A stretch of DNA of 64,000 nucleotides, from assembly GCA_963799845.1 (NCBI GenBank), contig CAWCYI010000006.1, forward strand, positions 1,408,001-1,472,000. Reading direction: 5' to 3'. Shown in pieces: positions 17,370-33,129 of this stretch. Positions within the stretch are counted from its first letter, which is position 1; each line of letters starts with the position of its first letter. Position numbers and translations under genes: made by a program. The notes under the pieces were generated by a model that was not told the origin of the DNA, did not search any database, and saw nothing but the letters and a program-made list of their open reading frames with translations. This DNA is from an uncultured Nitrososphaerota archaeon (GTDB lineage Archaea > Thermoproteota > Nitrososphaeria > Nitrososphaerales > CADDZS01).

Positions 17370-17390
17370 TTCAGAGAACTCCCGAGCGCA

Positions 17391-18290
17391 TCAGACGCCG
17401 CGCGGGTATGAACCCAGTACTTTCAATTCCTCAGTTTGATATCGAAGGTCTTCAATGGCCTTTCGACAATTTTCATCCTTGACATGCCCCGCAAAATCGA
17501 CATAGAAATAATACTCCCACGGCTTCCCTCTGATGGGTCTGGATTCAATTCTGTCAACATTAATCGCTCGAGAAGACAGAGCGGTGAGTGCTCTAACAAG
17601 GCAACCGGGCTCGTGTTTAGTCGCAAAAATTGCTGAAGTCTTGTCGTTGCCGGTTGGCATATTCAATTCATCGCTGTCTCTCTCCGCTTTTTCTACGACG
17701 ACGAATCTGGTCCGGTTTGAAGGGTCGTCCTCGATCCCTCTGGCAACGAGCGTCATTCCGTATATTTCGCTGGCGAGTTCGCTTGCAATTCCGGCCACGT
17801 CCTTCAAACTCTGCTCTTTGATCATCTTGACCGAGCCGGCAGTGTCATAAACTGGAACTTGTTCCCAGCGATTTCCCTCTCTTTCCAGATACTCTTTGCA
17901 CTGAGCGAGCGCCTGCGGGTGGGACATCACCTTCGTTATATTGTTCAGCGAAGTATCCCTGTGAATTATGAGGCAGTGGTCTACGGGAACGCTAATTTCA
18001 CCGACGATTCTAACATTCCTGCTGATCAGAAGGTCGATTGTCTCCCCTACACTCCCGGCCGTGCTATTCTCGATGGGGACGACCGCGAAATCGGGTATGT
18101 TATCTCCATTTCCAGAGAGCGCCCAGAAAACTCGCTGCAATGTGGGAAGCGTAAAGACCTGCTTAGCAGCTTCCTTGCCGAAGAAAAAATACACTGCTTG
18201 CTGGCTATAAGCACCTAGTTCTCCCTGAATTGCAACTGAAACCGTAGGTTTTTTCACTAACAGTTTTTTCGATGTAACTATGGAACTCAT
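17391..18290 (-). CDS. pheA: Prephenate dehydratase
   Basis: GELGAYS, PIENSTAGSV, SHPQALAQC, NRTRF, IESRP. Confidence 0.95.
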   Translation of the reverse strand: MSSIVTSKKLLVKKPTVSVAIQGELGAYSQQAVYFFFGKEAAKQVFTLPTLQRVFWALSGNGDNIPDFAVVPIENSTAGSVGETIDLLISRNVRIVGEISVPVDHCLIIHRDTSLNNITKVMSHPQALAQCKEYLEREGNRWEQVPVYDTAGSVKMIKEQSLKDVAGIASELASEIYGMTLVARGIEDDPSNRTRFVVVEKAERDSDELNMPTGNDKTSAIFATKHEPGCLVRALTALSSRAINVDRIESRPIRGKPWEYYFYVDFAGHVKDENCRKAIEDLRYQTEELKVLGSYPRGV

Positions 18291-18823
18291 GTCGAAGCTA
18301 CCAACCTCTGTCTCAATCTCTCGCGGACACGCCCCAGCCTGCCGCCGGAAACGAGAAGATCTCTTTCTTCACCGCTCATCAATATTTTCTTCTCAAATTG
18401 GGCGCCGCCTCTGTCTATCCTAACTACCAGTTTTTTCAGATCGATGTCCAGCTTGTCTCCAAGCTTGATGTCGGCCGTACTGTCCACCTTCACGACGCAG
18501 AAGGCGTTGTTTATCGAATTTCGGAAGAAAATATCCGGAAAAGATTCGGCGACAACCGCGTTCACATTGTTGTACTGGATCGCGTACACCGCCTGTTCTC
18601 TGCTTGATCCGCAACCGAAATTCTTTCCAGCTGCGACGATGTTATCTTTTTTCGAGTTAGCTCTGCAGGTCTTTATGAAATCCGGGCTGTACCTCTCGAA
18701 AGCATAATCGGCGAAGAATTTCTTGTCCCAGGCCTCTTGAAGTAAGTATGCGGGGATAATGTAGTCGGTGTTGATGTCATCGCCGAATTTTACGGTGACA
18801 GTTCCCTCGATAAGCTGATTCAA
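18287..18823 (-). CDS. leuD: 3-isopropylmalate dehydratase small subunit
   Basis: DDINTDYIIP, NFGCGSSREQA, IFFRNSIN. Confidence 0.92.
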   Translation of the reverse strand: MNQLIEGTVTVKFGDDINTDYIIPAYLLQEAWDKKFFADYAFERYSPDFIKTCRANSKKDNIVAAGKNFGCGSSREQAVYAIQYNNVNAVVAESFPDIFFRNSINNAFCVVKVDSTADIKLGDKLDIDLKKLVVRIDRGGAQFEKKILMSGEERDLLVSGGRLGRVRERLRQRLVAST

Positions 18824-20211
18824 GTGTAGTAACTCCTCGGGTCAGCTATTTTTCCCTCGATCGCGCTTGCGGCGGCAGTCGCTGGCGAGGAGAGATAGAT
18901 GAAGGCATCCGGCGAACCCATTCTCCCCTTGTAATTGCGATTGGAAGTACTGAGACAGCGATCTCCCGGTGAGAGAACGCCCATGTGTTTCCCAAAGCAG
19001 GGGCCGCAGTTTGACGATTCGATATTCGCTCCGGCGTCGGCAAAAATCTTGAGAATCCCTTCGTCCATCGCCCAGTTGTAGACCAGCCTAGAAGCCGGAA
19101 TCACGAGCAGGTTGACATTTTGGTGCACCTTTCGCCCTTTCAGTATGCGAGCAGCCTCAACGAGATCGGAGTGTCTTGCATTCGTGCAAGAGCCGATGAA
19201 GACAACATTGATCTCGTCGCTGATTTCGCTTGCCGGCTTCGAATTCGCAGGGGAATGCGGAAGAGCAACCTGTGGCTCGATATTGCCCGCGTCCAATTCC
19301 ATCAAAGAAGAGTAATCGGCTTCTGCGTCACTTTTTACAAATCTAGAACCGCGCTCGAAACTCGACGACAGTTCGCTCGCGAGCTCGGGATGCCTCGCAA
19401 TCGTGTCTTTCATGAATTCGGACGTTATCTCATCGGGATTGATAATGCCGGTTCTCGCGCTCATCTCAACCGACATGTTGCACATCGTGAACCGTCCGTC
19501 CATGCCCATCCTCCTTATCGTGTCACCGGAATACTCGGCTACCTTCTTCGAGCAGCCTCCTTCTTTCACCGTGCCTAAAATTTGTAAGATCAGATCTTTC
19601 GCAGAAACGCCGGGACGAAAATCGCCAGATATTTCAAACTTGTACGTCTCCGGGACAAAGAAATCGTAGATTTCACCCGTTGCAAGAGCGTATTCCGCTT
19701 CGGTTGTCCCGATTCCAAATCCGAGGGCACCAATCGCGCCAACAGTGTCAGTATGACTGTCTGTCGCAACAACTACCTCCCCGGGCCTTACGAATCCCTC
19801 TTCGGTGACGACGGTGTGTTCTATCCCGTCGCCTTCCTTGTACATCTTTATCCCCTGCTCCGAAGCAAAGCGCTTCATGAGATTTACTCCCTGCGCGACT
19901 TTAACGGAGCAGGACGGAACGGTGTGATCTGGGATGAAACACACTCTTGCGGGATCGAAAACTCGCAGCTTGAATTTTCCCTCTCCCGGCGGGCCGAAGA
20001 CCATGATTTCCTTTTGCGACCCGCTTGATCCGGCCTCGGAATAAACCGACTCGAAATCGTCCTCGAAATTGATTATCGCCGGAGGTGCGATAACTTCATT
20101 GAAATACAGCTTGTCAATCGGAAGAACGTCGATCAAATCCCCTGCCCGGACGTCTTTTCCAGCAGCTCGCGAAACAATCTTTTCAACGATTGTTTGATGT
20201 CGATCTAGCAT
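18820..20211 (-). CDS. leuC: 3-isopropylmalate dehydratase large subunit
   Basis: DSHT, IGSCTN, CGPCFG, STSNRNYKGRMG. Confidence 0.93.
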   Translation of the reverse strand: MLDRHQTIVEKIVSRAAGKDVRAGDLIDVLPIDKLYFNEVIAPPAIINFEDDFESVYSEAGSSGSQKEIMVFGPPGEGKFKLRVFDPARVCFIPDHTVPSCSVKVAQGVNLMKRFASEQGIKMYKEGDGIEHTVVTEEGFVRPGEVVVATDSHTDTVGAIGALGFGIGTTEAEYALATGEIYDFFVPETYKFEISGDFRPGVSAKDLILQILGTVKEGGCSKKVAEYSGDTIRRMGMDGRFTMCNMSVEMSARTGIINPDEITSEFMKDTIARHPELASELSSSFERGSRFVKSDAEADYSSLMELDAGNIEPQVALPHSPANSKPASEISDEINVVFIGSCTNARHSDLVEAARILKGRKVHQNVNLLVIPASRLVYNWAMDEGILKIFADAGANIESSNCGPCFGKHMGVLSPGDRCLSTSNRNYKGRMGSPDAFIYLSSPATAAASAIEGKIADPRSYYT

Positions 20212-21908
20212 CTCTCAGAATACCTCCAGCTCAAAGCCACGCGCCAGTCAGGCAGAGTGTATTTTTCGGATTTACTTCTGAATATCAGCTTGTAACGATA
20301 TCCGTCTATCAACGCTTTGATGCTGGCATCCAATACGTCTTCAGACACTGCCGTGGTAGCCCAAGTTGTCGAGGGCGAAGTTCCCGTGAACGTCAATTCC
20401 TCATCAGAGAATTCAGTTCTTGCTCGGGCGGTTGCGGCCGTCCCGCTAAGAGAATCGACGATGTTCAGTGAGTAGCTGATCAGCTTCAGATTCTTGAGTT
20501 CGGGGAACTCTTGCTCGAGACATTTCCTCAACGCAAGATCTATGGCGTGGATGGGACCCACTCCCTTTTCCGTTGCGGAGAGGGTCCTTTCGTATTTCCC
20601 TTCCTTGTCCCCCACGCGGACTTCTATAGTTCCAATTACCGAAGAATCATTGATCGATCGCGAAGTACTTGTTTCCCATTTCGTCACCTGAAACGGCCAT
20701 ATCGCAAAGCCGAGAGAGTCAAGAATCAACAGATGAAGACTCGCTTTTGCATTTTCAAACTTGCAACCGAATGCCTCCAGCTCTCGCATTCGGGTAAGCA
20801 CTTTTCTCGCAACATCCTCCCTTTCCTTCGTGTAAAGCCCCAACTCCCACATCTCATTCTTAACTAGGGAAGCATCGTCTACTCCGAGTAATCGATTGTT
20901 TCCAACAAGAGCCGGATTCACTGCTTCGTAGGTTTCCGAGCTTTTCGTTACGTCGGCGATGTGCGACGGATCAGAATGTGCGAACGCCAGGGTTCCCACG
21001 AATGGCTGACGGGGCTGAGAAAAACCGGAGGCTGAGGCCACTTTTTCGGAGAGAGTTTTCAACGAAATCAATTGCTGATCTCTTGGAGCCGATGAATTTA
21101 GTGCCTCGTAGCCAAGCTTAAGCATCAAGACCGGAAGAAGCTGGCAAAGGTCGGCATTCCCGGATCGGTCCCCCATTCCATTTACGGTGCCCTGAACGTG
21201 CGTCACTCCAGATTGAACCGCGGCGATGGTATTCGCTACTGCTAAACCAAGATCATTGTGGCAGTGAATTCCTAGAGTAATATTCTCCTTCGAGGAGAAA
21301 TGAGAATTGACGAGTTTCACTGCTTTCGAGACTTGCTCGGGGAATGAACCTCCCCGCGAATCGGAGAGGACTAATTTGGTTACCCCAGCGTCAACCGCCG
21401 TTTCAAGGATACTCAGCGCATAAGAAGTATCTTCAAAAAAGCCGTCGAAAAAGTGCTGCGCGTATAGAAGAATTTCTTTTCGTAACTTCTTCAGCGATGA
21501 GAGCTGTTTTTTCAGCTGTCGAAGGTTTGCCTCCGGTTCAATCTTCTTGTGAGAGAAACCTTCGGATAAATGTGACTGCCAGCAGTTTGCCCTAAGACTG
21601 ACATGCCTCACCCAATCTTCGGAAAGCCCTTGATGAGAGCTTACGTCAGAGAAAATCGATTCCGGGAGGAAAACAACTTGTTCAGCCCGCCCCTTCAGAA
21701 TTGAACGCACTTTCTTCAGGTACTCGAGGTCGTTTGGGTTTTCACCCGAAAAAGAAGACTCGATAAACGAAACTCCAAGCTCGTCAAGTTGACTCGCGAT
21801 AGACAGCTTCTCGCCGATGGAGAAAGAAACGCCGAATGTACGCTCCCTCAAAGTAGCGTCGAGAACTTTCAGTTTCTTTGTCGACTTTGAAGGGGAGGTA
21901 CTCTTCAT
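20205..21908 (-). CDS. Citramalate synthase (CimA)-like DRE-TIM protein with a degenerate N-terminal active-site motif
   Basis: GIHCHNDLGLAVAN, VQGTVNGMGDRSGNADL and a LeuA/CimA allosteric domain (GVGPIHAID); DATLRERTFG replaces DTTLRDGxQ. Confidence 0.8.
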   Translation of the reverse strand: MKSTSPSKSTKKLKVLDATLRERTFGVSFSIGEKLSIASQLDELGVSFIESSFSGENPNDLEYLKKVRSILKGRAEQVVFLPESIFSDVSSHQGLSEDWVRHVSLRANCWQSHLSEGFSHKKIEPEANLRQLKKQLSSLKKLRKEILLYAQHFFDGFFEDTSYALSILETAVDAGVTKLVLSDSRGGSFPEQVSKAVKLVNSHFSSKENITLGIHCHNDLGLAVANTIAAVQSGVTHVQGTVNGMGDRSGNADLCQLLPVLMLKLGYEALNSSAPRDQQLISLKTLSEKVASASGFSQPRQPFVGTLAFAHSDPSHIADVTKSSETYEAVNPALVGNNRLLGVDDASLVKNEMWELGLYTKEREDVARKVLTRMRELEAFGCKFENAKASLHLLILDSLGFAIWPFQVTKWETSTSRSINDSSVIGTIEVRVGDKEGKYERTLSATEKGVGPIHAIDLALRKCLEQEFPELKNLKLISYSLNIVDSLSGTAATARARTEFSDEELTFTGTSPSTTWATTAVSEDVLDASIKALIDGYRYKLIFRSKSEKYTLPDWRVALSWRYSERC

Positions 21909-21939
21909 TTTCCAAACGTTCCGGTTTGCCAGCTGGAGC

Positions 21940-23097
21940 TTATCTTCGTCCCTTACTCTTTCTCGAACTACTCTTGGATTTTGTCGATTTTGCTTTCGGA
22001 GCTTTCTTCGATGGCCGGCCGGAGAACGCAGCAGTTTGCAGCTTTGACCAGCTAACGGCTTTACCCGAACCTGACGTCTCTTCAGGCCACATCATTTGGC
22101 GAAGCCTTCGTCCAACTTGCTCAATCGGATGGGCGTCGAGCTCATCCAGATATTTTTCGAATGCACGGGCTTTTTCATTTTGGTATGAATTAACCCACCT
22201 CTCGGCAAAGGCACCCGACTGGATGTCTCGGAGCGCATTCCGCATTCGCTCTTTGGTCTCCTGGTTGATAACGTTCCCGCCTACTGTCAAACCGCCGTAT
22301 CGCGCGGTCTCGCTCACTCCCCGGTACATCCCAGCAATTCCGTATCGCTGAATCAAATCAACAATTAGCTTGAGTTCATGCAGGCATTCAAAATAAGCGA
22401 TTTCGGGTTGGTATCCGTTTTCGACCAAGACTTCGAACGCGTTTCTAATCAGACGGTCTGCGCCCCCGCAAAGATCGACCTGCTCGCCGAACCAATCCGA
22501 TTCTGTTTCTTCCTTGAAAGTAGTTTTTATCACACCGGCTCTGGTGCTACCGATACCCTTGGCGAATTCCAGGGTCCTCTGCCAAGCTCTACCAGTGGCA
22601 TCTTGGTGGACTGCTACAACCGATGGGGTTCCAAATCCTTGAAGGTAAACTTCTCTTACTCGCTGTCCTGGCGCCTTTGGAGCTACCATGAACACGTCAA
22701 TATCACTCGCTGGTTTGACCCAGCCCCAGTGGATAGCTGCTCCGTGAGAGAACCCAAGGGCTTTGCCGGTTGTTACGTAGGGAGCTATTTCCCGGTAAAC
22801 GTCACCCTGAACCATGTCGGGAACCAGGATGTGAATAATATCCGCCACCCTGGCCGCCTCCGCCACTTCGAGAACTTTGTGGCCGTCGGCCCTTGCCAGA
22901 TCCCAGGATTTTCCGTCCCTTCGCAGACCGACGACAACCTTGAAACCCGAGTCGCTCAGGTTGCTTGACTGTGCCCTTCCCTGGATTCCGTATCCGAGAA
23001 CGGCGATGGTTTCATTTTTTTGGACTTCCGACGTCGTTACATCCTTTTCGTAATAGGCGACAGCTTGACCAGCAATCTGCCCTAAATTAGACATCAT
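21940..23097 (-). CDS. ilvC: Ketol-acid reductoisomerase
   Basis: GYGIQG, FSHG, APKAPG, EETESDWFGEQ, AYFECLHE. Confidence 0.95.
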   Translation of the reverse strand: MMSNLGQIAGQAVAYYEKDVTTSEVQKNETIAVLGYGIQGRAQSSNLSDSGFKVVVGLRRDGKSWDLARADGHKVLEVAEAARVADIIHILVPDMVQGDVYREIAPYVTTGKALGFSHGAAIHWGWVKPASDIDVFMVAPKAPGQRVREVYLQGFGTPSVVAVHQDATGRAWQRTLEFAKGIGSTRAGVIKTTFKEETESDWFGEQVDLCGGADRLIRNAFEVLVENGYQPEIAYFECLHELKLIVDLIQRYGIAGMYRGVSETARYGGLTVGGNVINQETKERMRNALRDIQSGAFAERWVNSYQNEKARAFEKYLDELDAHPIEQVGRRLRQMMWPEETSGSGKAVSWSKLQTAAFSGRPSKKAPKAKSTKSKSSSRKSKGRR

Positions 23098-23113
23098 CTT
23101 AACATCCTCTCTT

Positions 23114-24067
23114 TCAATAAACACGAGTTACCCAGTCATCGTGGCCAAAAGTCATTTTGCCCAATACGAGAGCAGAGTATCCCTCAGACAGCGTCTTCGA
23201 AATAGGCCCGGCATTCCCGTCACCGATTATTTTTCTATCTACGCTGATAACCGGAGCCACGCCCGCCGCAGTTCCTGTTAGAAAAACTTCGTCAGCTATG
23301 TACAGCTCCGATCTAGCTACGTCTCTCTCAATGACATCCATCCGATTTTCTTTAGCCAATTCCATAATCGTGTTTCGAGTAATTCCGTCTAGGATGGATG
23401 CTCCAGTAGGTGGAGTGTATATTTTGCCCTTCTTGACCACGAAGATGTTTTCGCCAGTTCCTTCGGAGACCTTTCCCCCAGAATTGAGCATTATAGCTTC
23501 GTCATAACCGTTCTTGGCTGCTTCCCTTTTCGCAAAAACCGAGTTTACATAATTGCCGCAAATTTTTGCCATGGGAGGAGTCACAGGATCGTATAGCCGC
23601 GTCCAAGAAGAGATGCAAACGTCCAGGCCGGGCTTTCCGAAGTAGTGCTTAAACGGGAACGCAATGATTGCAGCTTCGATCGGATAATTAATGAAACCCA
23701 AGTTTATTCCGGAAAAACCAACGAACATGATCGGTCGTATGTAACAATCTTCCCTTATCTTGTTAGCTCGGAGGAGCGAGAGACATGCTTCCTCCAGCTC
23801 ACTGACAGTATATTTTGATTCGATGTCACAAATTCGCGCCGAATTCAGGAGCCTTTCAAAATGGTCTCGTAATCTGAATATGTGAAGGTTTGAATGAACC
23901 CCATACCCTCTAATCCCTTCAAAGACGCCAGTCCCGTAATGCAGGGCATGTGTCATCAGGGGAATTTTACCCTGATCCCATCCTACGACCTTCCCGTTCA
24001 TCCAGACGAATTCTGTCTTTTGTATTTCCGGTTTGGTTATCTCTTCCGACTCTAGTTCCACTACCAT
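23114..24067 (-). CDS. ilvE: Branched-chain amino acid aminotransferase
   Basis: LHYGTGVFEG, AKICGNY, EGTGEN, LDGITR, TGTAA. Confidence 0.95.
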   Translation of the reverse strand: MVVELESEEITKPEIQKTEFVWMNGKVVGWDQGKIPLMTHALHYGTGVFEGIRGYGVHSNLHIFRLRDHFERLLNSARICDIESKYTVSELEEACLSLLRANKIREDCYIRPIMFVGFSGINLGFINYPIEAAIIAFPFKHYFGKPGLDVCISSWTRLYDPVTPPMAKICGNYVNSVFAKREAAKNGYDEAIMLNSGGKVSEGTGENIFVVKKGKIYTPPTGASILDGITRNTIMELAKENRMDVIERDVARSELYIADEVFLTGTAAGVAPVISVDRKIIGDGNAGPISKTLSEGYSALVLGKMTFGHDDWVTRVY

Positions 24068-25191
24068 TTTAGAAGCACATCCTCCTTTACTCTCCCAATG
24101 TTACCGTCATCAATCCATTCTCCCGTCTGTTTTCGTATTTCCGCGCAAATCGCCTGAGTGACCTGAGCAGTCTTGGAATTGCCGCCGATGTCCTGAGTCT
24201 TAACTCCAGACCCCGTCACTATCGAGATTGCAGATTCCAAGCATTTCGAAGCTGCGGCGGAATTTACATCCGGCTTCTTTGACGTGAGCCAATCAAGCAT
24301 CATCTTGACAGTAAAGAGCATCGAAAGCGGGTTTGCGATTCCTTTTCCGGCAATGTCGGGGGCGCATCCGTGCACTGGTTCGAACAGAGCGAAATCATCA
24401 CCCAAGTTTCCAGAGGGAGCGAGGCCGAGGCCGCCCACTACTTGGGATGCCTCGTCAGACAGGATATCCCCGTACATATTCGATGTAACTATCACGTCAA
24501 AAGAATCAGGATTTCGAACAAGATTCATCGCCGCAGTGTCAACATACATTGATGAGAATTTTACCGATGGAAAATTCTTGGAGACTGCGTCGCATGATCT
24601 CAGAAAAAGTCCGTCTGACTTTGGTAGCACATTGGATTTTTGCACACAAACGACACTTGACTCTCTAGCCCTCTTTTCCTCTGCTGACCTGCCTGCCTCG
24701 CGAGATAAAGCGATCTCGAACGCAACTCTTGCTATCCTCTTACTCGCCTCTTCCGTCACGACTTTCAAGGCAATTGCCTTCCTGCCTTCCATTTCCTCGA
24801 ATTCGCGGGAGACGTAAAGGTCCTCCGTATTTTCCCTAACAATAACGAGGTCAACGCCGCGAAACTTGCTATCAATAAAGCGATAGTTCTTTGCCGGTCT
24901 GATGTTGGCAAAGAGTTTGAGTTGCTGTCTCAAGTAAATGACTGTCTCGAGCGCGGTCTCCCCCACGGGAGCTTTCAGGCAGATGTCAGACTCTCTAATT
25001 GTCGAGTAACTGGATTTTGGCATTGCCTCCCCTAAATCGCGGCGTGCCCTGTCGCCAGCAGGGGCAGGAACGAACTCGAATCCTATCTTGAAGCATTCAC
25101 CCAAAGTTTCGAGAACTGATCTTGCAGAGGAGAATATTTCTGGCCCAATTCCATCGCCTTCAATATAGGAAATTCGGAATGCTCTCGACAT
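24061..25191 (-). CDS. leuB: 3-isopropylmalate dehydrogenase
   Basis: GDGIGPE, RENTEDLY, NMYGDILSD, EPVHGCAPDIAG. Confidence 0.92.
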   Translation of the reverse strand: MSRAFRISYIEGDGIGPEIFSSARSVLETLGECFKIGFEFVPAPAGDRARRDLGEAMPKSSYSTIRESDICLKAPVGETALETVIYLRQQLKLFANIRPAKNYRFIDSKFRGVDLVIVRENTEDLYVSREFEEMEGRKAIALKVVTEEASKRIARVAFEIALSREAGRSAEEKRARESSVVCVQKSNVLPKSDGLFLRSCDAVSKNFPSVKFSSMYVDTAAMNLVRNPDSFDVIVTSNMYGDILSDEASQVVGGLGLAPSGNLGDDFALFEPVHGCAPDIAGKGIANPLSMLFTVKMMLDWLTSKKPDVNSAAASKCLESAISIVTGSGVKTQDIGGNSKTAQVTQAICAEIRKQTGEWIDDGNIGRVKEDVLLKW

Positions 25192-25210
25192 TCTTACTTT
25201 CATTCCATGA

Positions 25211-26752
25211 TTAGGATGTTGTGATTTGAGGCTTGTGCGAAGCTCGGGCCTTTCGGAGCATGACTTCATTGATTCCGCTGAGGACGGCGTCCACGCTGGT
25301 CATGACGATGTCCGTCCCCGTCGAGGATGCCGTGGTCAAATTGCCGTCTTCGTCCTCAATCTTGACAAGAACTTCAGCTTCAGCATCGGTTCCGCCAGTA
25401 ATCGCCTCCAGCTTGTATTCGCGGAGTTTGATTTTCGTGAACTTGTCTGTGACTTTTTGAATTGCATTAAAGACGGCGTCCACAGGTCCGGTGCCGGTTT
25501 CCGCCACCGTCATTGTCTGTTCATCGCCAATTGTCAGCCTTACCGAAGCCGTGGGTACCGTTTTTATCCCCGTTATCACCGCGAGATCAGTTATCTTCAG
25601 AAACGGATTTCCTCTCTCAAGCCCGATGACTTCTCTTGCGATCCGATCAAGGTCAACGTCCGTTACGTTCTTCCCCTGATCACCGATTATCTTCACGCGT
25701 TGGACGATCCTCTTGATTTCCTCTCGCGTTGTTTCGATGCCCAAGCTCTGGAGCTGGGAAGCCACACCGTGCGAACCCGCGTGCTTTCCAGCCTGGATTC
25801 TGCGCCTCGCACCCACCAGCTCTGGTTCCATCGGCTCATAGGTCGCTGGCAGATTCAGTACGCCATGGGTGTGAATGCCAGATTCGTGGCCAAACGCGTT
25901 CTCACCGACAATTGCTTTGTTAGGCTGAACGAATATCCCGGTTTCTTTAGAAACAAGCCTCGAAGTAGAATACAAAAGCTTCGTGTTTATTCCAGTCTCA
26001 AAGTTGTAAAGCCTGGAAGCCGCCATAACAAATTCCTCTAACGCCGCGTTGCCCGCTCTTTCTCCGAGTCCGTTGACGGTCACGTGGGCCTGATCTGCGC
26101 CCGAGTTAATTCCGGCGAGGCTGTTCGCAACTGCGAGGCCGTAGTCGTCGTGGCAGTGCGTGCTTAGAGGTACAGAGACATTTGATCCTATGAATCGAAT
26201 CAGGTCAGAATAACTCTCGGGAGTAGCAGTCCCAACGGTATCGGGGACGTCGATTCGCTCTGCTCCCGCTTCGACGACTCCTTTCAGCATCTGCGCAAGA
26301 AATGCTCTATCGGATCGGGTAGAGTCCTCTGCTGAAAACTCGACACGGATTCCATGCGACCTTGCGTATCCTACCCCTTCAATCGCAGCCTCCAACGCCT
26401 TCTCCCTAGTCATCTTCAGCTTGTACTGGAGGTGAAGATCGGAAGTGGCGATGAACAGGTGTCCGTAGGAAATATCGCAATCAATTAGCTTGTCAACATC
26501 GGATTTTTCGACCCTCGAAAGGGCACAGATCTGGGATTTCAGTCCCAGCCTGTTGATCGACTTTACCGATTCGAGTTCTCCATCGGAAACTATCGGGAAA
26601 CCAGCTTCAATCACGTCTACACCCAGTTCATCCAGTGCCCTCGCGATCTCGATTTTTTTCTCGACGGTAAGAGAAATACCGGGAGTCTGTTCTCCATCGC
26701 GCAGAGTCGTGTCAAATACCTTGACGCGTTTTCCTCTCGGTTTTTCAGACAT
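25211..26752 (-). CDS. leuA: 2-isopropylmalate synthase
   Basis: DTTLRDGEQ, HCHDD, GERAGN, HESGIH and an allosteric domain. Confidence 0.92.
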   Translation of the reverse strand: MSEKPRGKRVKVFDTTLRDGEQTPGISLTVEKKIEIARALDELGVDVIEAGFPIVSDGELESVKSINRLGLKSQICALSRVEKSDVDKLIDCDISYGHLFIATSDLHLQYKLKMTREKALEAAIEGVGYARSHGIRVEFSAEDSTRSDRAFLAQMLKGVVEAGAERIDVPDTVGTATPESYSDLIRFIGSNVSVPLSTHCHDDYGLAVANSLAGINSGADQAHVTVNGLGERAGNAALEEFVMAASRLYNFETGINTKLLYSTSRLVSKETGIFVQPNKAIVGENAFGHESGIHTHGVLNLPATYEPMEPELVGARRRIQAGKHAGSHGVASQLQSLGIETTREEIKRIVQRVKIIGDQGKNVTDVDLDRIAREVIGLERGNPFLKITDLAVITGIKTVPTASVRLTIGDEQTMTVAETGTGPVDAVFNAIQKVTDKFTKIKLREYKLEAITGGTDAEAEVLVKIEDEDGNLTTASSTGTDIVMTSVDAVLSGINEVMLRKARASHKPQITTS

Positions 26753-26753
26753 C

Positions 26754-27332
26754 TCAGAGACCTCTCCTAAGCGCAGTCAGACCGGTGCGAACGACTTCTT
26801 TCACGGCGCCGGATTTGGAAGCTTCTTCGATGAAATAATCAATTTTTTCAGGGATCGCGGTATATTCTACAACAAGGGAATCTTTTGCGAAATCGACGGC
26901 CTTTGCGCCAAGGTTGTTGGACAATTCTAGAATGCTGTTCCGACTCTTGTTGTCTCTCGTTTCGAACTTTACCAGGGCCAGTTCTCTTGCGACGGAGTCA
27001 TCGTGCGTCATAGTTCCAACTTCGATAACGTCAATCATTTTTTCCAGCTGCTTTACCAATAGTTGCAATGCTTGATCGTCTCCCTTAGGAATTATGGTCA
27101 TCCTCGCAAGGTCTGGTGACGAAGTTTCTCCAATGGATATGCTCGTGATGTTAAACCCCTTTGCCCTGAACATTCCAGAGATCCGATGAAGCACTCCACG
27201 TTGGTTCTCAACGATAGCGTAAACAATCTGTGTCGCCTGCTTTCTTTGCTCGCTCACGATTACTTCCTCACCGCTGGTGTTTGTGGGGATATGCGATGTA
27301 GACGCCGCAGCAGGTCTGGCCGACATACTCAT
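26754..27332 (-). CDS. ilvH: Acetolactate synthase small subunit
   Basis: VENQRGVLHRISGMF…FNI, RELALVK, EVVRTG. Confidence 0.93.
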   Translation of the reverse strand: MSMSARPAAASTSHIPTNTSGEEVIVSEQRKQATQIVYAIVENQRGVLHRISGMFRAKGFNITSISIGETSSPDLARMTIIPKGDDQALQLLVKQLEKMIDVIEVGTMTHDDSVARELALVKFETRDNKSRNSILELSNNLGAKAVDFAKDSLVVEYTAIPEKIDYFIEEASKSGAVKEVVRTGLTALRRGL

Positions 27333-29011
27333 GCAACCACCATGTCCTTTAGCGCAGTTCCAGGTACAACGAACGGGAAAACGTCCTCTTCAGGGGAGAT
27401 CGGGACATCGATTACGGTCGTTACATCGCTGCGAAGGCCGAGCTTAAGGGCTCTCGCAAATTCGTCGATCGACTGCGCTCTAAGTCCCTGCGCCCTGTAA
27501 GCCTCTGCAAGCTTGACGTAATCCGGAATTCCGTAAAGCTTGACACCGTGATACCTTCTCTGATAAAATAGCCGCTGCCACTGAGCGACCATGCCGAGCA
27601 TTGTGTTGTTCATTATTACAACTATGACCGGGATGTTGTCTAGGACTGATGTAGCGAGCGCCGCCTCTGTCATGTTAAAGCTGCCATCTCCGGCAATGTC
27701 CAGAACCGGCCTAGTGGGAGCCGCGACCTTCGCTCCTATAGCAGCTGGAAAACCAAAACCCATCGTTCCCAATCCCGTCGAACTGAAGAAAGTCCCCGGT
27801 TCAATTACATTGAAGTGAAGCGAGGCCCACATCTGGCACTGACCAACTTCGGTCGTTACAATCGCCGCGCTCGGCAGAATCTCTCGCAGTTTCTTGAGTA
27901 GGCTTAGAGCGTTCACATTGGACATGTCGACCTTCCACTCATTCTGACAGTTGTCCTTCACTTCGGCAAATTTTTTCCGCCAGGTCTGTATGTCGTTCTT
28001 TTTCGCTCTTCTAACTATAGACTCCACCATTGCGTGGAGGGACGGTTTGACATCCGCAACGATTCCAAGATCAGCTTTCTTGTTCTTGTTTATCTCAGAC
28101 GGATCTATGTCTACGTGGATAACCGTTGTCTTTGGTACGAAATCACTTACCTTGCCAGTAGATCGATCGGAAAACCTGGTACCGACGGCAAGAAGAACAT
28201 CAGCCTCCTGAATCAAGCGGTTTGCTTCAAGATGCCCGTGCATGCCGATTGGTCCAAGCGCGAGCGGGTGAGTCTCGTCAAATACACCCTTTCCCTTGAA
28301 AGTCGTCGCGACCGGGCACATCAGAATTTCGGCAAGAGCTTGAAGCTCCGCAAATGCTCCGGCTATTGCTACACCGCCACCAGCGAGGATCAGCGGCCGT
28401 TCTGCATTCAGTAGCGCGTCAACCGCTTTTTCGATTTTGATCGGATCCGGCAGAACGGCCGGGTTGTAGCCACGAAGGCTTACCTTCTCCGGAAAGATCA
28501 TCTCCGCCTCTCCGGTTTGAATGTCCTTGGGGATATCGATTAAAACCGGTCCGGGTCTTCCGCTGGATGAGATGTAAAACGCCTTTTTTACCATCTCGGG
28601 TATCTGCGCGGGATCAAGCGGCTGGAACGCGTATTTCGTAACAGGAGTCGCAACCCCCATAATGTCGCACTCCTGAAACGCATCTTTTCCTATACTAGTG
28701 GTTGCAACCTGCCCAGTAATCGCAACGATCGGGATTGAATCCATGTACGCTGTCGCAATCCCAGTGACCAGATTCGTGGCCCCGGGGCCTGAAGTCGCAA
28801 GGCAGACGCCGGGCCGCCTCGACACCCTGGCAAAACCGTCGGCCATGTGCGCCGCGAGCTGTTCGTGTCTAACAAGTATGTGCCTGATCTCCGAGCTGTA
28901 AAGATCGTCGTAGATTGGAAGATTTGCTCCTCCAGGCATTCCAAACAGTACGTTAGTACCTTCTTGTTGTAGCGCTTTGATTAGCGCCTTCGATCCGCTT
29001 AGTTTCGACAC
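27329..29011 (-). CDS. ilvB: Acetolactate synthase large subunit
   Basis: RHEQ, TSGPGATN, GDGSF…NN TPP motif. Confidence 0.95.
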   Translation of the reverse strand: MSKLSGSKALIKALQQEGTNVLFGMPGGANLPIYDDLYSSEIRHILVRHEQLAAHMADGFARVSRRPGVCLATSGPGATNLVTGIATAYMDSIPIVAITGQVATTSIGKDAFQECDIMGVATPVTKYAFQPLDPAQIPEMVKKAFYISSSGRPGPVLIDIPKDIQTGEAEMIFPEKVSLRGYNPAVLPDPIKIEKAVDALLNAERPLILAGGGVAIAGAFAELQALAEILMCPVATTFKGKGVFDETHPLALGPIGMHGHLEANRLIQEADVLLAVGTRFSDRSTGKVSDFVPKTTVIHVDIDPSEINKNKKADLGIVADVKPSLHAMVESIVRRAKKNDIQTWRKKFAEVKDNCQNEWKVDMSNVNALSLLKKLREILPSAAIVTTEVGQCQMWASLHFNVIEPGTFFSSTGLGTMGFGFPAAIGAKVAAPTRPVLDIAGDGSFNMTEAALATSVLDNIPVIVVIMNNTMLGMVAQWQRLFYQRRYHGVKLYGIPDYVKLAEAYRAQGLRAQSIDEFARALKLGLRSDVTTVIDVPISPEEDVFPFVVPGTALKDMVVA

Positions 29012-29031
29012 TTCTTATCTATACTCCACTA

Positions 29032-29100
29032 CGATTCTTCCCCCAGAGAGATTCTTTATTTTGAAAAAGAATAACGCTGGGGTCTATGCCACGAGAATCG
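29032..29100 (-). promoter_or_regulatory. Long leader hairpin containing a U-tract (candidate attenuator)
   Basis: Nested helices CGATTCT/AGAATCG, CCCCAG/CTGGGG and ATTCTTT/AAAGAAT. Confidence 0.6.
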
Positions 29101-29182
29101 GCAAGCCTAACACTCCGAAGGACAAGCAAATTTGTCCCTCAAACGAAAAAACGGAAATGACGCCAGATTGCTTGCCGGGCAT
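29084..29182 (-). CDS. Putative ilv/leu operon leader peptide (32 aa)
   Basis: MPGKQSGVISVFSFEGQICLSFGVLGLPILVA*; 11/32 residues are Ile/Leu/Val, 6 of the last 9; lies between a TATA box and ilvB. Confidence 0.6.
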   Translation of the reverse strand: MPGKQSGVISVFSFEGQICLSFGVLGLPILVA

Positions 29183-29212
29183 TTCTTACTGATTGTTTGC
29201 ATAATTCTTGTA

Positions 29213-29224
29213 ATTATTTAAAAG
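29213..29224 (-). promoter_or_regulatory. TATA box of the ilv/leu operon
   Basis: CTTTTAAATAAT about 35 nt upstream of the leader ATG. Confidence 0.5.
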
Positions 29225-29392
29225 TACCGAGTAAGGATTTGAGAATCCTTTAGAGATGATTCCCCAGCAGAATCTTTGAGGACTAGTCATGTTACATCGT
29301 GAATAGTCCTCGGATTATCGCTGATGATTGGCCCATGCTTCGTGAAAATAGTTTAACTCTTTTAACCTCACTTCGTACGCAAAATTACGATC

Positions 29393-30316
29393 TTGAGCTA
29401 TTCTGGCGGTTCAGGCAAGTCGTTTGGGAGCAAGGGGTTTTCCTCCCAAAAGAAGGAAAGAAAGAAGAAACAGGAATACCACAAGCACCGGTTAAAATTT
29501 ATCCCTGAGGAACACTTGAGCTTTGAACAGCTCAAGGAACGAGTTTCAACCGGGTTAGACCGGCTTGGAAACCAAGTTTTTTCATTCGAACCCGGCGGGT
29601 ACAGTTTTCACAACTGGATGACGAGCATTAATTTGCTGCTAGATGATTTTGAAGAAAAATGTGGACCCGTGAATCTGCCACGAGAATATTTTGACGCTCG
29701 GCTTGAGATGAGCGCGGAACTCCAAAAACCCGTTGATACCACGGAAGCGGATACAGAAATTCAGCGCCTAGAAAAAGAAATTTTGTCAAATGAGGAAAAT
29801 ATTTCAGAGATTGCTCGAAGGTCTCAGAAGGAAGCGGTGGAGGAAAGACATCAAGATGATTCTAAAATTCAGCGCCTGAAGAAAGAGCGGACGCAAACCG
29901 ATATTGAAATAGAAAAGGCGAAGGCCGACCTTGACGAGCAAAAGAGAAAGGCAAACCAATCCTTGTTCAAACGACTGTTTTCCAGTTCTGAAGCAGTCAG
30001 AGTGGCTCAGGAGAAACTGGATTCCCTCACTGCCCGCCGGGAGGAAATTGAGGAAAATATGAAAATGCTGGAAGAGGATCGCTCAGAAAGACAGGGTGTG
30101 ATAAAGAATTTCGATCATGAGATCTCGGAGTTGCGGTTAACACTAGAAGACTTGAGAAGAAATCTAGGGGAAGTGGAAAGTAAGAAACAGGAAGCGATGC
30201 AGCTCAGCGATAAGAGGAGGGAAGTGACGAAATCAATGTCGATCATTATATCCTCACTTCATCTTAGCGAGCACTCAGAGAACTCTTCAAACGAAGAAGA
30301 TGAAAAGACTGTTTGA
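29393..30316 (+). CDS. Coiled-coil hypothetical protein
   Basis: Long E/K/R/Q-rich heptad region interrupted by SLFKRLFS. Confidence 0.75.
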   Translation: MSYSGGSGKSFGSKGFSSQKKERKKKQEYHKHRLKFIPEEHLSFEQLKERVSTGLDRLGNQVFSFEPGGYSFHNWMTSINLLLDDFEEKCGPVNLPREYFDARLEMSAELQKPVDTTEADTEIQRLEKEILSNEENISEIARRSQKEAVEERHQDDSKIQRLKKERTQTDIEIEKAKADLDEQKRKANQSLFKRLFSSSEAVRVAQEKLDSLTARREEIEENMKMLEEDRSERQGVIKNFDHEISELRLTLEDLRRNLGEVESKKQEAMQLSDKRREVTKSMSIIISSLHLSEHSENSSNEEDEKTV

Positions 30317-30481: not shown

Positions 30482-30847
30482 CTAGGCAGAAGTGTCGTCA
30501 TTGTCCGCCGTTGACTCGGTCATCGAATCTCCAGAGCCTGAAGATTCGCTCGCAGAAGAGTCTGAACTTGCCGCAGCACTACCGGTAACGACCGTGGCGC
30601 TGGCAAATCTTGGACCGACTCGATCCACTTTGATCTTGACCTTCTGTCCTACCTTTGCTCCTTGTACAAAGATCACGAAACCTTGGACTTTTGCGACTCC
30701 GTCGCCACGTCTTGAAAGTTCAGTGACTTCTACGTCGTATTCCTTACCTACTTCGACAGGCTTCGGACCCATAGGAGGCCTTCCTCCACCGAATCCGCCC
30801 CTGTTTCCACCGTAACCGCCTCTGTCGCGGTCTCTACCGTAGCTCAT
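30482..30847 (-). CDS. Single TRAM-domain RNA-binding protein with Gly/Arg-rich N-terminus
   Basis: PVEVGKEYDVEV…GDGVAKVQGFVIFV…GQKVKIKV. Confidence 0.92.
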   Translation of the reverse strand: MSYGRDRDRGGYGGNRGGFGGGRPPMGPKPVEVGKEYDVEVTELSRRGDGVAKVQGFVIFVQGAKVGQKVKIKVDRVGPRFASATVVTGSAAASSDSSASESSGSGDSMTESTADNDDTSA

Positions 30848-31356: not shown

Positions 31357-33129
31357 GTGATCTCTTCCACCGTCTCGCCGTCTGAGAAATCTCGGCCGGA
31401 TCTTCCGATTTTCTCGATCCTCGACTCGATCGATTTTGAAGATCACTTTGTTCTTCTAGGTGATGTCGGCACCGGCAAGACAACCGTAACGCCGATCCAC
31501 GAGTTCAACAAGAACCAAAAGAAAAGAGAAATCGTCATCCGAGAACCATCGAGGGCCTCGTGCAACGCGCTGTATTACTCTCTGCAGGCGCTTTACCCGG
31601 AACTCAAGGACGATCTTGCGGTGATTACGAAGGACACTAAAATCAATGTAGACCGCGGAAGGATTCGGATTGTAACCGACGGTGTCCTCCTCAGGATGCT
31701 CGCCGAAAATTCCCTTAGAGATGTCTCAATTTACTTCGATGAAAGCCATCAGATGACGTCCCAGCTCGAGCTCTGCATGTCTCTTGCAATGAAGAATTCG
31801 TCCGGCAGAGGAAACTTGTTCCGGGTTATGAGCGCGACCATCGACCCGGCCGAGTTTTTGTCCTTCATGGGGATCAAGAATCTCTACACGATTTCAGGCA
31901 GGAGATATCCAGTCTCGATCGAGCTCGAAATGGCGAAGGACAATTTCGAGATGCAGGACAAGCTCGCATCTTACCTCTATTCGCAACCCGAGAGTGAATC
32001 GTGGCTTGTATTCCTTCCTACCAGGCGCCTCGTTGAAAAATACGCAAAGAGCTACGGCGGCGTTTACCTCCACGGCGGACTCGAGGGTGCCGAGGTCAAC
32101 AAGATCCAGCAGAGGGCGGAGATAGACAAGAACCTGAAGATTTTTGCGACAAACGTCGTCGCCTCTTCAGTCAACATTTACGTGGACAATGTCTTGATCT
32201 TCAACGAGACAATTGAAGGCAGAGACAAGTTAGGGCACAAAGTACTCGAATACAAATCGATTGACAATAATTCCCTTCTGCAGATGATCGGGAGGATTGG
32301 GAGGTTCAAGCCGGGCAGGGCCGTGATCTTAAGCGACGTTCCTATCCCCAAGACCATTTCTCCCAAGAAGGTGTACAAGTCTCTCGAAAGGGAAACACCG
32401 TTTGACCTTGTTCTACTGATGTCCAAGTACGGGTTGAAGCTAACAGATCTCGAGTTCATGTCCAAACTTAATCTAGATGAAATTGCCTTCGCGGAAAATT
32501 GGCTCTTCGAAATCGGTGCGATCCAAAAGGAGATGCACACGATAACCGAAAAAGGTGTCCTGATGAGCGAAATCCCCTACGATCCCGATTTCGCCCACAT
32601 GATCTCGGAAGCAATCGTCCGCGGAAACAATGGGGTAGCGAGATTTCTGCTGGCGGCGGGCTCGTTCGGGGATTCTCTCAATCATGCGTTCAGAACCGAG
32701 ATGGAGGCGCAGGCGAGCGAGTTTCTCTACGCGTTCGACAAGACGAGCGAGCTTGGAGTCAAGGCAAAACTGCTCCAGAAATACTCCGAGGATCGCGAAG
32801 GATTATTTCTCTCGAAGCTCGTAGACAATGGCATATATCCTCGGTTTCTTGAGGAGGCGTGGAAGAACTATGATGCAGCTCGCGATTCGCTCAACGACAT
32901 CATCAAGAGAGAGGGAAAGGAGATACCAAAAGAAGTAGTCTCTGAGATTGACTCTTCAAAGCTAGAGGAGTATCTCAAAGACTGTCTGACCTTCGAGCAC
33001 TACTATCTCCACGAGGCAAAGGAGTTCGGCCTCGACGACCTGAGGATTGAGGGCGACTTTTACGCGAGGAGTATAACAATGAACTTCAGGAAGATCCTGT
33101 ATGACGTAGTCGCGATTGAACCGAACTAA
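31357..33129 (+). CDS. Minimal DEAH/RHA (HrpA-like) helicase
   Basis: GTGKT, EPSR, TDGVLLR, DESH, MSAT, GRRYPV, LVFLP, ATNVVASS, QMIGRIGR and an HA2-like ITEKGVLMSEIPYDPDFAHMI. Confidence 0.88.
   Translation: MISSTVSPSEKSRPDLPIFSILDSIDFEDHFVLLGDVGTGKTTVTPIHEFNKNQKKREIVIREPSRASCNALYYSLQALYPELKDDLAVITKDTKINVDRGRIRIVTDGVLLRMLAENSLRDVSIYFDESHQMTSQLELCMSLAMKNSSGRGNLFRVMSATIDPAEFLSFMGIKNLYTISGRRYPVSIELEMAKDNFEMQDKLASYLYSQPESESWLVFLPTRRLVEKYAKSYGGVYLHGGLEGAEVNKIQQRAEIDKNLKIFATNVVASSVNIYVDNVLIFNETIEGRDKLGHKVLEYKSIDNNSLLQMIGRIGRFKPGRAVILSDVPIPKTISPKKVYKSLERETPFDLVLLMSKYGLKLTDLEFMSKLNLDEIAFAENWLFEIGAIQKEMHTITEKGVLMSEIPYDPDFAHMISEAIVRGNNGVARFLLAAGSFGDSLNHAFRTEMEAQASEFLYAFDKTSELGVKAKLLQKYSEDREGLFLSKLVDNGIYPRFLEEAWKNYDAARDSLNDIIKREGKEIPKEVVSEIDSSKLEEYLKDCLTFEHYYLHEAKEFGLDDLRIEGDFYARSITMNFRKILYDVVAIEPN

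Follow-up and report, generated by a model that had tools for sequence, protein, structure and literature searches.

The locus and its leader frame

The window considered here, a stretch of 64,000 nt of DNA from an uncultured archaeon of the phylum Nitrososphaerota, carries on its minus strand a set of biosynthetic genes headed by ilvB, 5' of which lies a divergent intergenic region of 381 nt. The following features were located in and around this region:

15858 to 27332, minus strand: ten more genes, ilvN to aspartate kinase, packed with overlaps or gaps of at most 31 nt
27329 to 29011, minus strand: ilvB, acetolactate synthase large subunit, with a GTG start (TIGR00118, 715.5 bits against a cut-off of 538)
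29023 to 29029, minus strand: GTGGAGT, containing a Shine-Dalgarno-like GGAG, 12 nt 5' of the ilvB start codon
29084 to 29182, minus strand: 32-codon leader frame (uORF), ATG to TAG, between the TATA box and ilvB; unannotated
29087 to 29116, minus strand: Ile/Leu/Val tail of the frame, codons 23-32, GVLGLPILVA, which includes GCTTGCCG (29106-29099) and GGCAT (29090-29086)
29215 to 29222, minus strand: TATA box TTTAAATA, part of the operon promoter

By NCBIfam assignment, the genes after ilvB are, in order, ilvN, leuA, a leuB-type dehydrogenase, ilvE, ilvC, a citramalate-synthase-like gene, leuC-type and leuD-type genes, pheA and aspartate kinase, with the leuB-type and citramalate-synthase-like assignments scoring under the curated cut-offs. 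An earlier description of this DNA from its letters alone (the sequence-only reading) had placed ilvB at the head of 11 genes; ilvB and ten packed biosynthetic genes are indeed present, and we infer that the 11 form a single transcript. The same reading had recognized an unannotated 32-codon ORF with 11 Ile/Leu/Val residues and a TATA box ahead of it. The ORF proved exact at 29182-29084, and the box TTTAAATA lies at the place named, 29222-29215, with a gap of 32 nt to the leader ATG (29182). It is conserved in the family to which the genome belongs (13 genomes, with ten leader sequences available for covariation), (C/T)TTAAATA being present in all nine full-length leaders 15-32 nt 5' of the first ATG; the family alignment includes one row from a locus designated L004, and no claim depends on that row alone. 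Across the order, a TATA-like box (at least 7 of 8 matches) was found 5' of the leader frame in 30 of 37 loci, and 25 of these 30 have a box-to-ATG gap of 22-32 nt; the ordinary genes of the relatives have the same TATA-to-ATG layout as the leader frame.

Archaeal transcription starts roughly 22-27 nt past the TATA box, and given the promoter spacing of the leader frame, the transcript is predicted to begin a few nt 5' of its ATG. The leader fits the layout of leaderless archaeal mRNAs, with the TATA box 22-32 nt 5' of the ATG and without a Shine-Dalgarno sequence; judged from this layout, the frame would be leaderless or nearly so and would be the first thing read on the mRNA. A GGAG-like word is present before ilvB in most members of the family.

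The frame translates as MPGKQSGVISVFSFEGQICLSFGVLGLPILVA, followed by TAG at 29086-29084, and its 32 residues comprise 11 Ile/Leu/Val and 3 Phe, with 6 Ile/Leu/Val in the last ten. It is open in 9/9 full-length family members despite variation in its length (31, 32, 33, 34, 35 and 37 codons). The peptide has no match among 15 billion predicted proteins and none in Pfam, and ten leader peptides from different families were likewise absent from the 15-billion collection (0/10); they have never been called as genes, which suggests that functional mini-frames escape gene callers as an entire class. A cmscan search of 28500-29900 against Rfam (E up to 10) returned no leader family, only two chance matches to microRNAs. 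The leader element is single-copy in the genome.

Contigs of close relatives (approximately 95% identical) that lie over the leader were recovered from four metatranscriptome runs belonging to three studies. These cover 28998-29173, 29015-29199 and 29025-29175, and a further one, 28839-29130, spans the ilvB start; as RNA libraries can contain DNA, this coverage is best described as fitting transcription of the leader together with ilvB. Ten in-frame variants were found in the contigs, five of them synonymous third-position changes, and codon 30 reads CTC, GTC or ATC, encoding Leu, Val or Ile. The contigs (151-199 nt, depth 2-3) include none over 29200-29446, and three end at 28998-29025, which is uninformative on where transcripts start or end.

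Ile/Leu/Val-ending frames across the order

A short frame may stand open by chance within a structured intergenic region, and the tail of the window's frame is, taken alone, not extreme: a score of 6/10 is reached by 38 of 2773 upstream frames of the same genome. The case against chance therefore comes from comparison with relatives and not from the within-genome tail score. IlvB was sought in 61 genomes of the same order, 51 of which were positive, and 50 loci (30 and then 20 more upstream stretches) were examined. A formal tail test was applied to 46 of them, with L004, whose upstream sequence is only 153 nt long, and three f13 family loci set aside. To be counted, a locus had to have an ATG frame that is at least 12 codons long, stops 15-130 nt ahead of ilvB and has 6 or more Ile/Leu/Val among its ten final codons. 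Such a frame is present in 33 of the 46 loci, and a stricter score of 7 is reached in 25. With 300 dinucleotide shuffles, the corresponding means were 0.92 loci (maximum 5) at threshold 6 and 0.18 (maximum 3) at threshold 7, and the reverse strand gave 3/46 and 1/46, respectively. The three f13 loci, read later, also have a Leu/Val-rich frame, in one case starting with ATG (score 7) and in two with TTG. As the genomes are related and the samples not independent, the fairer figure is the count of families: 15 of the 18 that carry ilvB have at least one locus with a score of 6 or more, and the remaining three reach 5. The expectation raised by the sequence-only reading, that relatives would also carry Ile/Leu/Val-ending ORFs before ilvB, is upheld by both counts. 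On this comparative evidence the frame is not a product of chance, an explanation to which we accord next to no probability; besides the order-wide count, it would leave the frame specificity of the Ile/Leu/Val richness and the conserved position of a hairpin at the stop codon, both described below, without a cause.

Inspection by eye revealed the same order of elements in almost every family, viz. a short Leu/Val/Ile-ending frame, its stop and a hairpin, in sequences that differ. Endings in relatives include ...DLLLLVVLLD, ...LAPLVLVVV, ...SLVIVILIK, ...VLPLVVLL and ...LILVIILLL; the sequence of the leader peptide thus differs between families and the composition of its tail is kept. The richness is confined to one reading frame, with the true frame being Ile/Leu/Val-rich in 33 of 37 loci and each shifted frame in 0/37. 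Within this set, which was selected for a tail score of at least 5 such that the level but not the shape of its composition is biased, the frequency of Ile/Leu/Val (families weighted equally) is 0.94, 0.92 and 0.85 at codons -2, -3 and -4 and 0.44 at the last codon. Order-wide, the tail residues are 38% Leu, 24% Val, 9% Ile, 1.1% Phe and 0% Met, and the near absence of Phe and Met argues that the tails do not reflect general hydrophobicity or U-richness. The sequence-only reading had also linked the three Phe codons of the frame to pheA in the operon. Both are present, but with Phe so rare in the tails of the order the link is not conserved, and Phe sensing tied to pheA was set aside on this ground.

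The hydrophobic C-terminus of the peptide and its fixed gene neighbourhood would also suit a small hydrophobic protein acting in trans, either as a membrane peptide or as a partner of acetolactate synthase. This we regard as very unlikely, given that only composition and not sequence is conserved between families, that conservation within the genus is at the level of nucleotides, and that no family match to the peptide was found; moreover, some frames have 14-18 codons with tails of approximately 8-10 hydrophobic residues, which is too short for a membrane span.

No comparable leader was found upstream of hisG or of the two ilvD-like genes of the same genome, a search of this 87%-complete genome gave no hit to the trpE chorismate-binding family, and a genome-wide screen for frames rich in a single amino acid gave nothing convincing. 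The second leuA-like genes of five relatives have ordinary leaderless promoters and no leader.

Helices in the leader RNA

The leader RNA contains the following elements, of which two helices are conserved, one formed directly past the stop codon and the other enclosing the frame:

29041 to 29082, minus strand: hairpin abutting the stop codon, 42 nt, two-tier, with outer stem CCCCAG/CTGGGG and inner stem ATTCTTT/AAAGAAT
29063 to 29074, minus strand: U/C-rich tract TTATTCTTTTTC, within the 5' arm of the post-stop hairpin
29117 to 29140, minus strand: local hairpin GAGGGACAA/TTGTCCTTC, located mid-frame, where the sequence varies
29154 to 29182, minus strand: 29-nt 5' block, conserved, running from the start codon to codon 10 and forming the 5' arm of the enclosing helix

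The post-stop hairpin begins 1 nt past the stop codon, and the segment containing it folds at -18.6 kcal/mol (z = -4.4). In the family, its outer stem is nearly invariant and of the CCCAGC/GCTGGG type, and its inner stem varies in sequence and length between genera, always pairing and always with the pyrimidine-rich arm 5'. For the equivalent post-stop segments of the order, z is negative in 35 of 37 loci and under -2 in 22 of them (median -2.6), and the first paired base lies no more than 3 nt past the end of the stop in 33 of 37. A hairpin abutting the stop codon is an order-wide property. Start codons follow the G run of the hairpin in most family members, as noted by eye. A second mini-frame past the hairpin, with that G run as its ribosome-binding site, was considered and set aside as its frame, length and relation to ilvB vary (by eye), and K-turn and T-box-like readings of the hairpins were dismissed by eye since the motifs do not fit.

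The 29-nt 5' block is identical in five of the six members of the genus, including the window, and in the sixth it is cut by the contig end; in the same genus the IlvB proteins are only 83-97% identical. Within this block, CGGCAAGC (29177-29170) is the perfect complement of GCTTGCCG (29106-29099), and ATGCC (29182-29178) pairs with GGCAT (29090-29086), which places the start codon opposite the final sense codon and the stop's first base. The two pairings together join the start codon and codons 2-4 to the Ile/Leu/Val tail and close the entire frame into a single long, irregular hairpin. For the leader as a whole, the folding energy is -57.4 kcal/mol (z = -2.5, 200 shuffles). In the family, the 5' block pairs with the tail of its own frame at -21 to -28 kcal/mol, and 92.6% of cells in the enclosing helix and the post-stop outer stem are paired, compared with 30-47% when the partners are slid. 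The search for covarying helices that the sequence-only reading had suggested gave a divided answer: in the CGGCAAGC/GCTTGCCG helix two pairs have changes in both partners (C-G to A-U or G-U), but the family helices are mostly invariant, with only 2 of 19 pairs covarying, a count reached by 131 of 500 shuffles. Order-wide, pairing between start region and tail is weak, with a median z of -0.87 (below 0 in 28 of 35 loci, below -2 in 7 of 35). In a second family, 7 of 14 leaders pair their 5' end with the segment directly past the stop, using three different sequence pairs. No conserved downstream partner was found for the 5' block, the best duplexes lying at differing places between genomes. 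Its CCCGGC, which resembles the CCCAGC arm of the hairpin, could pair with GCTGGG in one genus and one further member only (by eye), and this pairing was not retained. A metagenome pattern scan for more members of the family returned at least 116 stretches, and ilvB or the leader was present in none of the matches listed.

The sequence-only reading had further proposed competing helices, between which ribosome stalling on the Ile/Leu/Val codons would switch and so control read-through into the operon. Each of these helices is present as it described, and CGGCAAGC/GCTTGCCG is conserved across the family as noted above; the remaining pairings are confined to the two or three closest genomes. They comprise GGCAAGCAA, which can pair with TTGCTTGTC (29129-29121) through nine pairs, one of them G-U, the closure of CGATTCT (29100-29094) with the complementary AGAATCG (29038-29032), and the GAGGGACAA/TTGTCCTTC hairpin, which occurs only in the window and its two closest relatives, other family members having a different local hairpin at its place. 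Alignment folding of the family with the tail masked yielded no alternative helix that is conserved, nor were antiterminator and terminator helices that exclude one another found to be conserved.

The 5' block and the outer stem are conserved as sequence beyond the needs of pairing, which could indicate protein sites: an operator 3' of the TATA box (e.g., of the Lrp type), or an RNA-binding protein on the two hairpins, with the frame being incidental. Archaeal repressors usually bind operators lying across the transcript start. We nevertheless consider this quite improbable, because it leaves unexplained why the frame is upheld through changes in length, why 15 of 18 families, unrelated in sequence, have an Ile/Leu/Val tail specific to the frame, and why the hairpin keeps its place with respect to the stop; the varying spacing of the hairpin arms and the compensating changes of the inner stem, in addition, point to RNA and not to a DNA palindrome.

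In the window, the post-stop hairpin is followed by GAAGAATCG and has no U run, and a terminator scan of the same strand found no hairpin-plus-U terminator before ilvB. Order-wide, a run of 4 T directly past the hairpin occurs in 1 of 37 loci and a run of 5 T anywhere in the spacer in 8 of 37; U-rich stretches do follow the hairpin in some families, but T-rich stretches were rejected as terminators since they are not general. At the place of TTATTCTTTTTC, other family members have a pyrimidine-rich 5' arm (from the alignment rows), and a run of 5 T is limited to the three closest genomes. The end of the hairpin lies 11 nt from GTGGAGT in the window. When the leader was folded with a ribosome modelled at different positions, along the lines that the sequence-only reading had advised, the region -16 to +3 of ilvB had a mean unpaired probability of 0.58-0.62 in all five modelled ribosome states. 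Masking of the ilvB ribosome-binding site by ribosome-dependent refolding was likewise rejected, with no change observed in ten loci.

A proposed sensor and its relation to known attenuators

The reading that we favour, with a probability of approximately 60%, is that the element is a cis-acting translated ilv/leu leader which gauges the supply of charged Leu-, Val- and Ile-tRNA by the time that a ribosome spends on the last codons of the frame. A ribosome starting at the 5' AUG would have to open the enclosing helix, and would meet the Ile/Leu/Val codons last. With Ile/Leu/Val-tRNA scarce, it would wait at codons -2 to -8 from the stop, keeping the enclosing helix open while the stop-abutting hairpin stays folded; with these tRNAs plentiful, it would reach the stop and the outer stem of the post-stop hairpin would melt. 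Upon departure of the ribosome, the enclosing helix could re-close over the start codon, leading to fewer further rounds of translation, and the state of the hairpin would set the traffic of polymerase or ribosomes into ilvB.

Counted from the P site, the footprint of an archaeal ribosome covers approximately 12 nt on the trailing side and 15 nt on the leading side. During a wait on codons -2 to -4, a ribosome would thus reach about as far as the stop, leaving the hairpin, 0-3 nt further on, intact and in contact with it, and one with the stop codon in its A site would have to unwind about 5 of the 6 outer pairs in the window. Set against the position of the hairpin, this footprint implies that the design could tell a ribosome stalled on Ile/Leu/Val from one that has finished.

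The direction of the response constrains how the hairpin might act. With amino acids in good supply, a ribosome at the stop would melt it; the hairpin must therefore have a positive effect, and simple steric models have the wrong sign; we know of no archaeal precedent for a hairpin acting positively in such control. The possibility that we prefer for this family, although we rate it well short of even odds, is that the folded hairpin hides the U/C-rich tract TTATTCTTTTTC from the archaeal termination machinery, such that the folded state would permit read-through and the melted state would cause premature termination; a terminating ribosome would expose the tract. For families with U-rich stretches past the hairpin, it is equally possible that the hairpin serves as a terminator and that a ribosome occupying the final Ile/Leu/Val codons covers the base of its stem. 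More doubtful still is the fuller proposal of an archaeal form of leader-peptide attenuation, in which the arrival of the ribosome at the stop, and not a choice between terminator and antiterminator, would set a hairpin that hides or exposes a U-rich tract to intrinsic or aCPSF1/FttA termination.

It is also conceivable, but unlikely, that the leader is constitutive, i.e., translated without sensing anything. The frame would then load a ribosome on the leaderless 5' end, the helices would protect the mRNA or pass ribosomes to ilvB by unfolding or re-initiation, and the Ile/Leu/Val richness would be a by-product of a U- and G-rich 3' arm. The failure to find a switch structure with the tail masked is in keeping with this, as are frames that are open and nearly leaderless even where the tails of a family score 5 or less (f8), and in one family (L038) a Shine-Dalgarno-like word for ilvB lies inside the post-stop hairpin, where a terminating ribosome would open the ilvB site. 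Against the by-product argument, composition alone gives no NUN periodicity: 0 of 37 shifted frames reach 6/10, and Phe and Met are nearly absent. Families whose helices and peptides are unrelated all have frames ending in Leu/Val/Ile. Furthermore, were ilvB to depend on passage through Ile/Leu/Val codons, its synthesis would fall in shortage, which is the wrong direction.

A textbook form of bacterial control, leader-peptide attenuation needs ribosomes close behind the polymerase, and among the branched-chain operons of enterobacteria it governs ivbL-ilvBN, ilvL-ilvGMEDA and leuL-leuABCD. Like those attenuators, the archaeal leader has a short 5'-leader frame before the first gene, rich in the pathway's own codons and set within RNA helices. 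Unlike them, the frame is nearly leaderless and without a Shine-Dalgarno sequence, its regulatory codons form part of the 3' arm of a helix that encloses it from end to end, the hairpin that comes next begins at the stop and has no U run after it, no mutually exclusive pair of terminator and antiterminator is conserved, no Rfam family matches, and the host is an archaeon; to our knowledge, the archaeal polymerase does not use hairpin terminators. Among classical hallmarks of attenuators, a short 5'-leader frame (with its translation predicted) and a cluster of pathway codons are thus found, and an intrinsic terminator and exclusive helices are missing, so that the element looks like a leader that works as a leader-peptide sensor yet fails two defining tests of a bacterial attenuator.

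In translational attenuation, of the ermC/cat type or as in the actinobacterial LEU element, a hairpin hides a ribosome-binding site and is opened by a stalled leader ribosome; the ilvB ribosome-binding region here, in contrast, is equally accessible in all modelled states. With tnaC of Escherichia coli, which operates with Rho, free amino acid is sensed through the nascent peptide at the stop codon. The putative aCPSF1/FttA-type output would be analogous in that a ribosome held at the end of the leader decides the access of a factor to stop-adjacent RNA, but the likely signal in the archaeal leader is tRNA charging at Ile/Leu/Val codons, and the factor site is hypothetical.

Another close bacterial counterpart is the ilvBNC attenuator of Corynebacterium glutamicum, said to have been described by Morbach and colleagues in 2000. 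A later article states the principle of leader-peptide attenuation and describes the ilvBNC leader peptide as having Leu and Val control codons and being made without a ribosome-binding site, with three overlapping hairpins (anti-antiterminator, antiterminator and a proven terminator) that compete for a shared GCC triplet (PMC11857589). Compared with this attenuator, the archaeal leader shares the Leu/Val codons, the lack of a ribosome-binding site, the adjacent hairpins and an initiation region that would be open only transiently, by which translation and transcription would be coordinated; it differs in having two hairpins without overlap and no evident terminator. That leader-peptide attenuation is barely documented in archaea, as the sequence-only reading put it, accords with our literature search, which gave bacterial attenuators only and which a paper in a subscription journal could have escaped. 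In PMC2965389, archaea appear in the reference list alone, and in PMC13158618 attenuation is cited with bacterial references (Corynebacterium and E. coli).

If the fuller proposal of an archaeal form of leader-peptide attenuation is true, the leader would be the first ribosome-mediated amino-acid sensor in Archaea and would provide direct functional evidence for a regulatory use of archaeal transcription-translation coupling. Kept in 15 of 18 families of an archaeal order, it would offer a concrete element, open to mutation, for asking if ribosomes in archaea send a signal to transcription or to translation further downstream, and for studying the regulation of archaeal termination. It would also bear on the tuning of the branched-chain pathway in autotrophic archaea, which must make these amino acids.

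The survey was extended outside the order to 47 loci of the phylum, 38 of which could be parsed, 14 of the 38 being from one further family of the order; in most of these 38 loci another gene precedes ilvB. One family in this survey has a frame ending in ...VVILK together with a hairpin and without an ATG, and in another a frame of 12 codons, MLVFRLVVVLKR, lies 6 nt ahead of ilvB.

The interior of the leader frame and the segment before ilvB

Two elements were recognized in the window, one inside the 32-codon leader frame that precedes ilvB and one between the hairpin following that frame and the gene.

29146-29151, minus strand: run of six T within the leader frame, codons 11-13 (GTT TTT TCG)
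29012-29040, minus strand, and the corresponding position in L003-L010 (ilvB upstream loci of relatives): mini-frame of 2-10 codons overlapping the Shine-Dalgarno-like GGAG word, present in most family members

Two of the Phe codons that the sequence-only reading had counted in the leader peptide owe their presence to the six-T run, which resembles a termination or pause signal of archaea. The run recurs within the leader frame of the two closest relatives of the window, there as five T, and is absent from the remaining members of the family. In most family members, an ATG, TTG or GTG located 0-10 nt past the G run of the hairpin opens the mini-frame, which was found to end exactly at the ilvB start in one genome and to run in frame into ilvB in three; its occurrence between the G run and ilvB could be due to chance.

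ilvB leaders in other families

Within the order Nitrososphaerales, the leaders of family f12 carry elements of their own beyond the stop codon.

L030, L053, L058-L061 and L063 (f12): stop codon, next a word that is the complement of the mRNA 5' end, and after it an A/U-only hairpin
L093, L094 and L096 (from further families of the phylum): mini-frame located some 45-90 nt before ilvB, ending ...(T/S)LQV(E/D/R)-stop and bearing the nucleotide word CCCTCCAAGT

The f12 hairpin, AATTTTAA-cac(a)-TTAAAATT, is conserved and lies immediately 5' of the GGAG of ilvB. The LQV mini-frame is a different conserved frame ending before ilvB, shared by three genomes of two families, and L094 has in addition a 12-codon MLVFRLVVVLKR frame 6 nt upstream of the gene. 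Outside the order, L076 and L077 of family f38 have an open frame with the ending ...VVILK-stop and, directly after it, a 10-bp GCGCCTTAAG/CTTAAGGCGC hairpin that precedes ilvB; this frame has no ATG and would have to begin at TTG, GTG or another codon.

Upstream genes and host genome

Three genes were annotated upstream of the leader.

29393-30316, plus strand: coiled-coil-like protein of 307 aa that matches SMC only weakly
30482-30847, minus strand: TRAM-domain RNA chaperone-like protein, an upstream neighbour of the leader
31357-33129, plus strand: HrpB-like DEAH helicase, likewise an upstream neighbour

The host genome comprises 4.6 Mb on 9 contigs, with a completeness of 87% and a contamination of 4.9%. 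It exceeds most sampled genomes of the order two- to threefold in size, and its family is represented by only 13 genomes in the collection.
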